Below, one piece after another: positions 52,318-56,822 of a DNA stretch of 64,000 nucleotides. The notes beneath the pieces were generated by a model, which was given only the letters and a program-made list of their open reading frames with translations, did no database searches and had not been told where the DNA came from. Made by a program: the position numbers and the translations under genes. Positions within the stretch are counted from its first letter, which is position 1. Every line of letters starts with the position of its first letter. The DNA is from Eledone cirrhosa (taxonomy: Eukaryota). Where the stretch lies: NCBI GenBank assembly GCA_964016885.1, contig CAXHJY010001327.1, positions 277,421 through 341,420 on the forward strand. Direction: 5' to 3'.

Positions 52318-52367
52318 TCACCTTGAAATCCTTCCTGCACCAAGCTTGAAAAATTTCTGTTCAGAAT
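52318..52367 (-). CDS. GTSF1: GTSF1-like gene, probable coding exon 4 (DSEQKFFKLGAGRISR then TGA, or spliced at AG|GTGAAG)
   Basis: Strong acceptor AATTTTATTTCAG, phase-1 compatible with exon 3. The frame is open to TGA at 52318-52320, which overlaps a possible donor. Confidence 0.6.
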
Positions 52368-52956
52368 CTGAAATAAAATTATTTAAATATAGATATAGAC
52401 GTTAAATGATGATGATGATGTGTTATGCATTTTCTTTGCTGCATTTTAATAAATGCACAGCCAAAGAACACAGCTCACAAAAACAAGATGGTATAAATTA
52501 GAACAAAAAGAGAAAGTAACAGCAAGTAGTCACTGAGGAGGCCACAGAATGTGTGATAAAAGACCTTTGATGACAATCAACAACTAAACAACCATCCAGT
52601 TATTAAACAAACCAACTGGGAAATTATAATAATAAATTGAAGTAAAACCCAACAGGTGTGTGTGTGTGCGTATGTTTTTATTGGCAGTATGACCTACCAT
52701 TTCCATACTAGCAATGGTTGGACATGTCATCACAGAGTAGTTAGTACTCAAGCAGAGCTTTTAACCTCAAGGAGTCTGGGAGGGCCTGACATGATTCCTT
52801 GCATTTTATTGTGGTACCAGCACTCAGGAAGTTGTTATGTCTCTGACATAGCAGAAGAGTTTTGCCAACACTTTGTTTTCTATGGCTGGATACCTTTCCT
52901 ACCACCATCCATTTTACAGAGTATACTGTGTGTATGTGCACATATATATATATAAT

Positions 52957-53139
52957 TGTTTCTACTTTAGGCACAAGGCCAGCAATTACCCAGTGCATTA
53001 CTGGTACTTTATTTTATCGACCCCGTAAGGATGAAAGGCAAAGTCAACCTCGGCGGGATTTGAACTCAGATCGTTAAGGGACGTAACTATGCTGGAAAGC
53101 ATGGCGTCCGACCCTCTACCGATACTGCCAATCCACCGC
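52957..53139 (-). mobile_element. tRNA-derived SINE, near-identical to the copy at 38318
   Basis: About 3 substitutions relative to the satellite copy by eye. Probable TSD ATATATAAT at 52948-52956 and 53140-53148. Lies in a GTSF1 intron. Confidence 0.92.
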
Positions 53140-53155
53140 ATATATAATAAATATA

Positions 53156-53260
53156 CACAATAGTTACCTTAGTCCTAAGAAGCAGCAATAACCACAATAC
53201 TCTATACACAGACACAATAGTTACCTCAGTCCCAAGAAGCAGCAATAACCACAACACTAT
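53156..53260. repeat. Two-copy local duplication (~57-bp period)
   Basis: CACAATAGTTACCT(T/C)AGTCC(T/C)AAGAAGCAGCAATAACCACAA occurs twice. Confidence 0.8.
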
Positions 53261-53303
53261 GTAGAGAGGCAATAGATACTCTGTATATAAAGATGGTACT
53301 TAC

Positions 53304-53405
53304 CAGCTTCCCAATCTTCCTCCCTGTTTAACTCAAAGCTTGCATCAGGTACATCAAGATTGCCTGAAGGGAGATCATCAGTGTCTTTATTTTGTTGAAG
53401 GCAGG
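53304..53405 (-). CDS. GTSF1: GTSF1-like gene, coding exon 3 (ACLQQNKDTDDLPSGNLDVPDASFELNREEDWEA)
   Basis: Acceptor CTTTCAG, donor G|GTAAGT, 102 nt phase 1 to phase 1, no stops. The acidic EEDW motif resembles the Trp-containing PIWI-binding central region of GTSF1. Confidence 0.85.
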
Positions 53406-53428
53406 CTGAAAGTTAGAGAGAAAATCAT

Positions 53429-53970
53429 TTAAAGGATCATTTCAATTTATGTTGACTGAAATAAAAAATATAAATTGGTCCCCCATTGGTTTCAACAAAG
53501 AGCTGTCTCGTTATTCAACCAACAGTCGGACCTACTCATTAAATTCATATTTAAGAGGCTGAGTTTTCTACAGACATATGTACCCTTAACCCTTTAGCAT
53601 TTAAACCAGCCATATCCAGCCAGAATTCTCTCACCTCTTTTTGTTCAAACCAGCTGTAACTGGCCACTCATACTGATGTTAAGGTATTGTTCTCAAAATA
53701 AATAACATCAAAATCTCTTATATTAGATATTATGCAAGATAATTATGTAAGATAAAGCGTTTACCGTGAAAATATAATAGTATATATAGAGTAATGTAAA
53801 TTATAAGGGTTAAAGGAGGATTCCAATTTATGTTGACTGGAATAAAAAATATAAATTGGTCCACCATTGGTTTCAACAAAGAGCTGTCCAGTTATTCAAC
53901 CAACAATAGGACCTACTCATTAAATTCATATTTCAGAGGCTGAGTTTTCTACAGACATATGTACCTTTAA
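53429..53970. repeat. 161-bp direct duplication (53429-53589 and 53810-53970) flanking a MITE
   Basis: Both units run TTAAAGG...AATTTATGTTGACTG...CTACAGACATATGTACC(C/T)TTAA, with scattered substitutions. Confidence 0.9.
53590..53809. mobile_element. piggyBac-type MITE
   Basis: TTAA|CCCTTTAGCATTTA ... TAAATTATAAGGG|TTAA. The interior matches the copy at 57989-58193. Confidence 0.85.
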
Positions 53971-54079
53971 GGTAATTCTCAAGAAGATTCGGCAATGGAC
54001 AATGTGCGACAAAATTGTCCATTTGAATAACAGGCACATGTCAATCTGACAGGCCATTGTTCCAGTGATAGGCTTCCAG

Positions 54080-54250
54080 ATCATCCCTGATTTCCAGGTC
54101 TTACAAGGACGCCCTCTTCCTCATCTACCATGGACCACAATCCTGGTATCCACCCACTACTACAATTCACATGTCCAAACCAACGCAGTGTGCGTGATCT
54201 TAAAACAGGGTCAAGTGCTGGTATCGTTAATTTTTGATAGAGAGATGCCA
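54080..54250 (-). mobile_element. Old decayed RTE ORF C-terminal remnant
   Basis: Minus strand reads VLRSRTLRWFGHV, followed in another frame by GRPCKTW. Confidence 0.6.
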
Positions 54251-54500
54251 TGTAGACTGTCTGAGATTGGGGAGGTGGGATGGGGTATGAATAAAGTACA
54301 AGTCCAGTACTAATGTCAATTGTTCCTGTCACTCCATCTTGTATTATCTCTGTTACAAATAAAATGTGAGTAGGGAAGGGCTTTACCAGGTTTTAAATAG
54401 CCCAAGATATGTCACAAGTTACCCCTCTGTCAAGAGTTGAATACCCAAGGAAAGGTTGTGGATCAAATAAGAACAATACTACATGTAATTTAATACTTAC

Positions 54501-54627
54501 CATATTTTAAATCTTGATCAAGCATGGCTTTATCTGGACATAGGACCAAGTGATACCGAAATTCTGGCTCAGGTATCCGATGTTTATTATTAAAGGGGCA
54601 AACTCGAGTTTTTTTCAATGGAAAATT
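54501..54627 (-). CDS. GTSF1: GTSF1-like gene, coding exon 2, second CHHC zinc finger (NFPLKKTRVCPFNNKHRIPEPEFRYHLVLCPDKAMLDQDLKY)
   Basis: Acceptor TTTTTTGTTTCTAG, donor G|GTAAGT, 127 nt phase 0 to phase 1. C-P-F-x3-H-x9-H-x3-C fits the U11-48K CHHC finger. Confidence 0.93.
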
Positions 54628-54857
54628 CTAGAAACAAAAAAATAAAAGCTAGTGTTTTTAATAGTCACACATCTTGTTCTTAGTTGAGGCTAACTCTAAT
54701 CCAGTGGAAAATTGTTCTCTATTAAAACTTTCAACCAACAATAGTATAAATCCCTGATGGGCTTCCATACAGTTTACATCCACCAAATTTCACTCACAAG
54801 CCTTTAATTCTTTTTTAATCAGAAACTAAGAGTTAGGAGATTTAAAGCTGCAGTATA

Positions 54858-54962
54858 GTGTGTGTGTGTGTGTGTGTGTGTGTGTGTGTGTGTGTGTGTG
54901 TGTGTGTGTGTGTGTGTGTGTGTGTGTGTGTGTGTGTGTGTGTGTGTGTGTGTGTGTGTGTG
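54858..54962. repeat. (GT)n microsatellite, ~52 units
   Basis: Perfect TG run in a GTSF1 intron. Confidence 0.99.
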
Positions 54963-55031
54963 CATATGTGTGTGCACATATTTGTAATGGAATGGTAAAA
55001 CTTGAAAAAAGTGAAACATTCATTTCAAAGA

Positions 55032-56360
55032 CAATGGAGACTTCTGCTGACCTTGGCCCTAGGACCACCTCCCTACTCACCACCATCAGCACCCCTGAGC
55101 AGTGGAGACTTCTAGTGTCCTTGGCCCTAGGACCACCTCCCTACTCCCCACCATCAGCACTCCTTAGCAGTGGAGGTTCTGGTGTCCTTGGCCCTAGGAC
55201 CACCTCCCTACTCACCACCATCAGCACCTTGTAACAGTGGAGACTTCTGGTGTCCTTGGCCCTAGGACCACCTCCCTACTCACCACCATCAGCACCCCTG
55301 AGGAGTGGAGACTTCTTGTGACCTTGGCCCCAGGACCACCTCTCTACTCCCCACCATCAGCACTCCTTAGCAGTGGAGACTTCTGGTGTCCTTGGCCCAC
55401 CTCCCTACTCACCACCATCAGCACCCCTTAGCAGTGGAGACTTCTGGTGTCCTTGGCCCTAGGACCACCTCCCTACTCACCACCATCAGCACCTTGTAAC
55501 AGTGGAGACTTCTGGTGTCCTTGGCCCTAGGACCACCTCCCTACTCACCACCATCAGCACCTTGTAACAGTGGAGACTTCTGGTGTCCTTGGCCCTAGGA
55601 CCACCTCCCTACTCACCACCATCAGCACCCCTTAGCAGTGGAGACTTCTGGTGTCCTTGGCCCTAGGACCACCTCCCTACTCACCACCATCAGCACCTTG
55701 TAACAGTGGAGACTTCTGGTGTCCTTGGCCCTAGGACCACCTCCCTACTCACCACCATCAGTACCTTGTAACAGTGGAGACTTCTGGTGTCCTTGGCCCT
55801 AGGACCACCTCCCTACTCACCACCATCAGCACCTTGTAACAGTGGAGACTTCTGGTGTCCTTGGCCCTAGGACCACCTCCCTACTCACCACCATCAGTAC
55901 CTTGTAACAGTGGAGACTTCTGGTGTCCTTGGCCCTAGGACCACCTCCCTACTCACCACCATCGGTACCTTGTAACAGTGGAGACTTCTGGTGTCCTTGG
56001 CCCTAGGACCACCTCCCTACTCACCACCATCGGTACCTTGTAACAGTGGAGACTTCTGGTGTCCTTGGCCCTAGGACCACCTCCCTACTCACCACCATCA
56101 GTACCTTGTAACAGTGGAGACTTCTGGTGTCCTTGGCCCTAGGACCACCTCCCTACTCACCACCATCAGCACTCCTTAGCAGTGGAGACTTCTGGTGTCC
56201 TTGGCCCTAGGACCACCTCCCTACTCACCACCATCAGTACCCCTGAGCAGTGGAGACTTCTGGTGTCCTTGGCCCACCTCCCTACTCACTACCATCAGCA
56301 CCCCTGAGCAGTGGAGACTTCTGGTGTCCTTGGCCCAACTCCCAACTTACCACCATCGGT
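55032..56360. repeat. 68-bp minisatellite, ~19-20 copies, intronic
   Basis: Unit CAGTGGAGACTTCTGGTGTCCTTGGCCCTAGGACCACCTCCCTACTCACCACCATCAGCACCTTGTAA (e.g. 55500 and 55568). Some units lack CCTAGGA. Confidence 0.97.
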
Positions 56361-56708
56361 ACAGAGTTGGCGACCTGCAAGTATGAACCTCGCCAACTGG
56401 AATGTCTCTCTCACCATCCTCCAAGAAAAGGCTTTCTCTATTCTGTCCGCTGGGGTTGCTGGGCAGCCAGCACGTGGGACCCCATTTGTTTATAATAGTA
56501 AGAGATGTGGGGGGGGGGGCAATGAGACGGAGGCAGTGAGTGAAAGAGGGAGGACATCAACACTTATTTATACAAATAGCTTTCCCATGATTCAACAGCA
56601 GACACCGACATCCCATTTTTTACAGATCTTCAATATCATTACTTGCAAATTATTTTATTTATGCACTTATTTAGATAGCCCTTATAACTCCAAAAGATTT
56701 GTACTTAC

Positions 56709-56822
56709 CTTTCGACATTTTTCTAAATGATACACCATCCTCCTGCTCTGTACCCTGTGAACAGGGTCATATGGGCACACCTCATAATCATCAGGATCAG
56801 CAATGGGTATAGAGGAAGACAT
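56709..56822 (-). CDS. GTSF1: GTSF1-like gene, coding exon 1, first CHHC zinc finger (MSSSIPIADPDDYEVCPYDPVHRVQSRRMVYHLEKCRK)
   Basis: ATG at 56822, donor AAG|GTAAGT, 114 nt phase 0. CPYD-x2-H-x9-H-x3-CRK is the hallmark N-terminal finger of GTSF1/Cue110/Asterix. Confidence 0.93.

Follow-up and report, generated by a model that had tools for sequence, protein, structure and literature searches.

We analyzed a 64,000-nt stretch of the genome of the octopod Eledone cirrhosa (assembly GCA_964016885.1, contig CAXHJY010001327.1, positions 277,421 to 341,420 of the forward strand; hereafter the window), in which a spliced gene, almost certainly a member of the GTSF1/Asterix family of PIWI cofactors, lies on the minus strand next to a long satellite array. 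Four coding exons were identified:

56822-56709, minus strand: coding exon 1, 114 nt, starting with ATG; residues 1-38 with CHHC finger 1; phase-0 GTAAGT donor
54627-54501, minus strand: coding exon 2, 127 nt; CHHC finger 2 and the helix that follows it; phase-1 GTAAGT donor
53405-53304, minus strand: coding exon 3, 102 nt; acidic linker and EEDW motif including W112; phase-1 GTAAGT donor
52367-52322, minus strand: coding exon 4, 46 nt, likely internal; phase-2 donor AAG/GTGAAG

The four exons encode 129 codons without a stop, and an AG acceptor precedes each of exons 2, 3 and 4. When the octopod protein P0006 was searched against the window with tblastn, it matched the exons at E values of 6e-21, 7e-20, 9e-11 and 6e-4, with the next match at 1.4, and exon 2 alone used as a query returned three candidates, all of them octopod proteins with 88-93% identity. 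Residues identical to the Octopus bimaculoides protein numbered 37 of 38, 38 of 42, 24 of 33 and 13 of 14 in exons 1 to 4, the fingers being better conserved than the linker. The exact motif C-P-x4-H-x9-H-x3-C occurs twice, at residues 16-36 and 48-68, all eight zinc ligands are kept, and both exon 1 (39.8 bits) and exon 2 (33.3 bits) exceed the Pfam cut-off for PF05253 (21.1 bits). Because the octopod matches fall exactly on the four exons, the gene is real and a chance arrangement is excluded. A preliminary description made from the letters alone had proposed four phase-compatible minus-strand exons with AG acceptors and three GTAAGT donors, two tandem CHHC fingers and an acidic EEDW motif, and all of these were borne out, the phases being 0, 1 and 1.

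Coverage of the gene was examined in assembled contigs from three runs of one sample. For 52250-54850 no RNA run was listed; the three runs cover introns and exons alike and are on that ground taken to be DNA, possibly the very data from which the assembly was made. Contig depth over the exon bins was 3-16, close to that of a single copy, and no variant rows appeared at 92% likeness, although these counts are incomplete and some differences go uncounted by the tool. Over exon 4, contigs extended from 51923 to 52556 (52553 in one run) and showed no differences from the window in any of the three runs.

Comparison with PDB sequences gave mouse GTSF1 (6x46) as the top match of both exon 1 (E 1e-7) and exon 2 (E 2e-11), followed by the GTSF1 chain of 9nhb. 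The PF05253 finger is also common to U11-48K (SNRNP48) and TRM13, which were the alternative identities to be considered. However, U11-48K matched the exons only at E values of 0.03 and 0.18 (up to 0.35), TRM13 was absent among the PDB-sequence matches, and according to PMC2562017 both of these proteins have a single CHHC finger while every GTSF homologue has two. TRM13 further has a CCCH finger and a methyltransferase domain; PF05253 was the sole Pfam family above cut-off in the full-length orthologues, and no methyltransferase family was matched either in them or in the 47 members of our wider profile, A2. A Foldseek search with the orthologue model returned as its top two structures mouse GTSF1 and, from the SIWI-piRNA-target-GTSF1-Maelstrom complex, the GTSF1 chain. 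The finger count, the E values and the unmatched methyltransferase family refute a U11-48K or TRM13 identity, to which we assign a practically negligible probability, and since the gene has two tandem fingers and far better E values against mouse GTSF1, the family named in the preliminary description is almost certainly correct as judged from the encoded sequence.

RNA binding by mouse GTSF1 was reported to need the basic finger-1 residues R26, R29, K36 and K39, and activation of PIWI to need the fingers plus the W motif (PMC9385479). Three of the four basic residues are kept, as R28, K35 and K38; Q25 stands in for mouse R26, with additional arginines at R23 and R27 nearby. In an alignment with orthologue P0006, W112 aligns with mouse W107 and is likely to be a PIWI-contact residue. 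Mouse W112 falls outside the aligned stretch, where F120-F121 are possible stand-ins. Mouse W98 is paired with a leucine of the orthologue, which counts against the reading.

The coleoid orthologues of this gene are much longer than the part found in the window. They measure 324 residues in O. bimaculoides (XP_014787926, with a 321-residue isoform as well), 329 in Argonauta hians (GAB1597928) and 324 in Sepia pharaonis (CAE1172059), and are annotated as uncharacterized or CHHC-domain proteins. Members of a cuttlefish cluster, 322-325 residues long, are encoded on Logan contigs of 1.4-1.5 kb, a size that would fit spliced messenger RNA. These long forms are direct orthologues that have the four-exon N-terminal stretch in common with the window gene, but the window encodes only residues 1-129. 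A quick tree of 122 finger-region sequences grouped the window peptide with four coleoid proteins, all of which bear the C-terminal tail described below, with a Shimodaira-Hasegawa-like approximate likelihood ratio (SH-aLRT) value of 99. The window peptide is 88% identical to the O. bimaculoides protein over 114 columns, and it differs from each of four named octopod sequences.

Identity to O. bimaculoides persists to residue 129 and then ceases. At that point, 52322/52321, AAG/GTGAAG forms a phase-2 donor, and the split AG/N codon can encode Ser130 of the orthologue. The stop at 52318 stands one codon past the split codon, just beyond the donor. A one-residue gap between O. bimaculoides on the one side and Argonauta and the cuttlefish on the other coincides with the residue-130 junction, a pattern to be expected if a phase-2 junction there had a tandem acceptor. 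Orthologue residues ~130-324 had no match in the window, either by tblastn with three queries (E<=1) or with three profile hidden Markov models (HMMs) run over 3186 six-frame segments. The annotations of O. vulgaris and O. sinensis break the gene into an N-half and a C-half, and the C-half carries the name 'eukaryotic translation initiation factor 2A' in the O. sinensis annotation and 'Partner of Y14 and mago' in that of O. vulgaris (P0004, P0007); these look like mislabelled halves of GTSF1, and the split is a hint that the gene is long and hard to assemble. A truncated O. sinensis model, P0001, ends by read-through past exon 2.

Because the donor at 52322/52321 fits Ser130 of the orthologue, the stop at 52318 is likely to be intron read-through, and the four exons are likely the first coding exons of a long form of ~325 residues. 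The preliminary description had closed the protein at 52318, at ~130 residues. That end was not confirmed and is probably wrong, given orthologues ~195 residues longer and a similarity that ceases at a usable donor. DNA beyond exon 4 is occupied as follows:

1..52321, minus strand: putative intron 4, at least 52 kb and open at the window start, proposed from orthologue residues ~130-324 being unmatched in the window
48750..51454: 29-bp GC-rich minisatellite, 93.5 copies
48420-48718: 38-bp satellite derivative, between the 29-bp array and the main satellite
6..48439: AT-rich 31-bp satellite, 1448 anchored units; the 1389 units of 27-33 nt comprise 217 variants

Past exon 4 there are only 863 nt of non-tandem DNA, then the 29-bp array and then the satellite, which is broken by a 3.1-kb long interspersed nuclear element (LINE) and runs on past the window start. 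Since residues 130-324 are unmatched and arrays fill the window beyond exon 4, we think it probable, on this arrangement of sequences, that the gene continues past the satellite and that the intron spliced out after exon 4 is at least 52 kb long, nearly all of it tandem repeat. A satellite of more than 48 kb beside the gene had been noted at the outset and is confirmed by the array at 6-48439. The accompanying picture of a gene at a satellite border stands as far as adjacency goes; a gene that stops there probably does not, for the long orthologues and the phase-2 donor indicate that it likely runs through the satellite. Within the array, internal duplications are near-exact, including 3151 bp at 100% identity with an offset of 3117 and several 1-2.5-kb blocks at offsets of ~6.1 kb; they are either young higher-order repeats or assembly copies.

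Several points weigh against an internal exon 4. With no G at +5, the donor at 52322/52321 is a weaker one than the GTAAGT donors of exons 1-3, and the solved GTSF1 chains have 121 and 149 residues, so short forms exist and a 130-residue product would not be out of the question. No AATAAA or ATTAAA occurs in the 863 nt past 52318, but with a probability of 0.27 of finding none by chance this lends weak support to a continuing gene and is no proof of it. Exon 4 could thus be terminal, the gene encoding a complete 130-residue short GTSF1 whose tail was lost in the lineage, perhaps when the satellite arose. Such a product would use the stop that follows the split codon so closely and would keep the fingers and W motif, the parts reported to be needed for PIWI activation in mouse (PMC9385479), and tail-less relatives are known by name, such as those of Lymnaea (231 residues) and Tribolium (194 residues). 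We nevertheless regard a short form as unlikely: the tail is present in four of four other members of the coleoid clade, similarity ends precisely where a usable donor lies, in a phase compatible with Ser130, and a stop directly after a donor is typical of intron read-through, as seen after exon 2 in O. sinensis P0001. Less probable still is a partial duplication in which the 5' half of GTSF1 was copied and left as a non-functional fragment at the edge of the satellite, while the working gene lies elsewhere. Segmental duplicates accumulate at repeat borders, and the O. sinensis N-half sits on a 23.9-kb contig apart from its C-half. Yet the four exons have no stop or frameshift and keep every zinc ligand, the fingers have changed less than the linker, and the near single-copy exon depth, without variant rows in the incomplete counts, also speaks against a second copy; we consider a duplicate very unlikely.

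The size of intron 4 is a separate matter. The splice out of exon 4 is itself inferred, with the downstream exons lying beyond the window. The contig over exon 4 stops at 51923, no contig joins exon 4 to the arrays, and the exact kilobase duplications in the array (3151 bp at 100%) could be assembly products, all of which counts against a giant intron. The gene could accordingly be a normal long-form GTSF1 to which the satellite has been misjoined, or whose satellite has been inflated in length, so that the true intron 4 is shorter. No contigs spanning from exon 4 to the arrays were listed, exact 2-3-kb duplications lie within the array, and long palindromes at 61062-61526 and 61712-61924 would also fit such an error. 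On the other hand, the window has no N gaps, and the passage is ordered, with unique DNA followed by the 29-bp array, then the 38-bp derivative and then the 31-bp satellite, the last two sharing sequence. Young satellites normally show near-exact higher-order blocks, and the gene is split in two other Octopus annotations as well. An assembly artefact is in our judgment improbable, and we continue to favor an intron of at least 52 kb.

Giant introns filled with satellite have a precedent in Drosophila, where introns of the Y-loop genes kl-3 and kl-5 were described as mostly satellite DNA that has to be transcribed through (PMC6508621). The same source gives those introns as simple repeats, megabases long and located on the Y chromosome, and their transcription as shown; in the window the repeat unit measures 31 bp, only 52 kb can be seen, and the intron and its transcription are both putative.

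We then considered the part of the protein that would lie beyond the window, using the orthologues. Their middle region is disordered and holds four or five GRG motifs. It is followed by a predicted helical hairpin at residues 268-323, in which ten-residue blocks from 271 to 320 have a mean predicted local distance difference test (pLDDT) score of 97-98; the predicted template modeling (pTM) score of the whole model is 0.31. The last ~55 residues match residues 552-601 of human eIF2A, at E 0.0012 from one sequence and 7.8e-13 from the 47-sequence profile A2. The tail has no Pfam family: PF05253 alone is common, in 47 of 47 members of A2, and other families match one or two members. Predicted-structure neighbors of the tail in the Atlas are clusters auto-named eIF2A, PYM1 and Caprin-1 (template modeling scores of 0.85-0.88 over 57-62 residues), all of them under the Atlas naming bar. 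The best solved fold match is Caprin-2 HR1 (Z 8.2, root-mean-square deviation 2.8 Å, 60 residues), a score only modestly above those of unrelated hairpins (6.0-6.9). From the orthologue sequences, the missing end of the window gene likely carries a helical tail resembling eIF2A and PYM.

To see how widely the tail occurs, we used a profile of three cephalopod proteins against 1.84 billion representatives and analyzed the best 150 of 1434 matches; because this search profile itself contained the tail, the shares that follow are inflated. A cephalopod-tail HMM found the tail in 51 of the best 150 (one of these a 62-residue fragment consisting of tail only), and it was present in 41 of the 124 strict two-finger proteins among them. 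After everything past residue 120 was shuffled, just the tail-only fragment still scored. A broader tail HMM detected 55 of the best 150, including 11 that were not used in building it, and 0 of 149 in ten shuffles. Tail carriers include the sponges Halichondria panicea and Ephydatia muelleri, the coral Oculina, the annelid Capitella, the bryozoan Watersipora, the oysters Saccostrea and Magallana, and several decapods. In one set of 31 proteins, 20 carry it. Lymnaea, Homarus, Halocaridina, Tribolium and a partial Armadillidium protein are tail-less. The tail of the E. muelleri protein P0066 (280 residues) scored at an independent E value (iE) of 0.059 with the cephalopod HMM and 3e-9 with the broader one. 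Because several carriers of 276-538 residues are encoded whole on contigs of less than 2 kb, it is unlikely that the fusion of fingers and tail is an annotation artefact.

The GRG motifs are not tied to the tail, being found in 35 of 41 tail-bearing and 49 of 57 long tail-less proteins and in none of the decapod tail-bearers. Whether the tail was gained or lost is unsettled by the tree, which gave 24 changes against 35 when shuffled and in which 56 of the 119 branches stayed open. When metagenome contigs were scanned with the cephalopod alignment, 152 matched the pattern and none was confirmed. Some relatives were unusually long, namely P0034 (686 residues), P0162 (698), P0180 (554) and P0035 (1268), with the tail in mid-protein in P0034 and P0180; their length and the position of the tail suggest tandem GTSF1 genes fused by annotation. 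Also among the unusual relatives, P0187 additionally has a PF00035 domain.

Set beside known systems, the gene resembles mouse GTSF1/Cue110 (6x46) and the GTSF1 chain of 9nhb/9nhc in its two N-terminal CHHC fingers, in a basic finger-1 surface with three of four residues in common and in an acidic E-x-W motif ~45 residues past finger 2. The mouse and SIWI-complex proteins are small with an unstructured tail, whereas the coleoid form has ~325 residues, GRG motifs and a predicted folded hairpin, and does not keep W98. Published accounts put GTSF1 homologues at ~19 kDa with a probably unstructured C-terminus (PMC9539491) or at 20-30 kDa (PMC13650160), and the fingers have been called the sole globular domains of GTSF proteins (PMC2562017). 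With 324-329 residues and a predicted hairpin at 268-323, the coleoid orthologues depart from this picture of a small, fingers-only family. What they have in common with the C-terminal helices of eIF2A, the end of PYM1 and the N-lobe of Caprin HR1 is only a short module, which is not encoded in the window, and unlike those proteins the orthologues have no beta-propeller, Mago-binding or Caprin dimer domain. No description of a GTSF1 tail was found in the literature searched, outside which most subscription papers fall, nor was a link between GTSF1 and eIF2A, as judged by listings. By its sequence, the window gene adds one more member to an established family, and its long variant seems to be undescribed.

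Other repeats lie within the introns and around the gene; the labels SINE (short interspersed nuclear element), MITE-like (miniature inverted-repeat transposable element) and RTE-like are ones we presume for them:

55031..56336: 68-bp minisatellite in intron 1, 19.4 copies
54858-54974: CA run in intron 1, adjoining the 68-bp minisatellite
53584-53813, within 53429..53970: high-copy element of ~230 nt in intron 2, flanked by two 161-nt direct copies that are 93% alike
52951..53139: SINE-like element in intron 3, of very high copy, with a summed contig depth in the millions
26322..29400, minus strand: 5'-truncated LINE inside the satellite, with an open frame covering a partial endonuclease, a reverse transcriptase and a PHD finger, and with a short trinucleotide tail

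The introns had been described as full of young mobile elements, which is overstated. Intron 3 does hold one: its SINE-like element shares 98.4% identity across 189 nt with a copy that lies within the satellite at 38312-38500 and, on that identity, is young. Intron 1 is mostly the 68-bp minisatellite and the CA run, and intron 2 has one very high-copy element, of which the window holds another copy at 85% identity. At 57983-58197 the ~230-nt element recurs without the 161-nt direct duplication. The 161-nt duplication around the intron 2 element far exceeds a usual target-site duplication. A contig that skips 53554-53934 was considered as a true empty allele and rejected, as the skip sits on the sole 31-nt exact match of the 161-nt copies; 31 nt is the word length at which such assembly graphs collapse.

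The LINE inside the satellite matched the Pfam families RVT_1 (E 7.5e-32) and PHD (E 3.6e-6), with Exo_endo_phos_2 slightly under its cut-off. Its 3' 659 nt are 99.1% identical to 58872-59530 on the plus strand, upstream of the gene, and because these copies are so alike the family is, by sequence, recently active. An older relative, 74-77% identical, occupies ~59760-60860. The LINE is possibly related to the octopus RTE LINE reported in PMC9115989.

Upstream of the ATG, candidate 5' donors were seen at 57154 and 56913-56946, and the observed/expected ratio of CpG is 0.70 at 57501-58000; none of these is distinctive. A CpG-richer unique stretch at 57450-57750, ~700-900 nt upstream of the ATG, could be a promoter or first non-coding exon and is likewise not distinctive. 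Farther upstream, amid AT microsatellites, are the two palindromes, one at 61062-61526 with 232-nt arms at 94% and one at 61712-61924 with 106-nt arms at 98%, each with a 1-nt center; they could be foldback elements or assembly artefacts. A TA-rich microsatellite of 2 kb with a period of 27-29 nt fills 61965-63999, and the plus strand has no G in the last 2 kb. An Rfam search over 48000-62000 gave 30 matches, none at the gathering score, and all were microRNA models on palindromes or AT runs.

Taken stepwise, the exons, both fingers and the orthology to coleoid long-form GTSF1 are the starting point for what the protein may do. By analogy with GTSF1 of mouse, silkmoth and sponge, for which function data have been published (PMC9385479, PMC13650160), finger 1 would bind RNA and the region of W112 would grip PIWI that is loaded with piRNA (PIWI-interacting RNA) and engaged on its target, together speeding target cleavage and silencing transposon transcripts. 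If the gene follows its orthologues, exons beyond the window would add the disordered GRG-rich middle and the C-terminal hairpin. Arginines in the GRG motifs are likely to be methylated and could then be bound by Tudor proteins, as the methyl-arginine sites of PIWI proteins are (PMC10711660). More speculatively, the hairpin might tether the complex to 40S ribosomes or to RNA granules, in the manner of the eIF2A-like end of human PYM, which is reported to associate with 40S (PMC4072592). Drosophila PYM, for which the same report gives an eIF2A-like end and finds no ribosome binding, weighs against this. Because a protein with the same end does not bind ribosomes, we hold ribosome docking to be a tentative possibility, somewhat doubtful even by analogy; alternatively, the hairpin could have a plain RNA-binding or scaffold role.

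We also considered a broader and rather improbable scenario. In it the ancestral animal GTSF1 was long, and a hairpin of the eIF2A/PYM/Caprin type was kept from sponges to cephalopods and decapods and lost in the mouse and insect proteins from which the field grew. The hairpin would dock the PIWI complex on 40S ribosomes or granules and couple slicing to translation. Transcription of the octopod gene would have to cross more than 50 kb of satellite as well as a young LINE whose frame is intact, and the output of the gene could depend on the heterochromatin it helps build. No functional link between the role or position of the gene and its repeat-rich setting has been shown.

A GTSF1 gene in an octopod was to be expected, and it is already half-annotated in relatives, so the family assignment is ordinary. 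If exon 4 does splice across the array, a core transposon-silencing gene would contain a satellite-filled intron of more than 52 kb, and such a giant intron would explain both the split Octopus annotations and the C-halves mislabelled as eIF2A or PYM. The conserved tail, though it lies outside the window, is a testable lead. A conserved hairpin that is related to eIF2A and PYM and modeled with confidence forms the end of many invertebrate GTSF1 proteins, among them one from Ephydatia muelleri, a sponge whose GTSF1 was reported to stimulate sponge PIWI (PMC9385479). The tail thus allows a concrete test of whether piRNA-guided slicing may be linked to ribosomes or granules in animals other than mice and flies.

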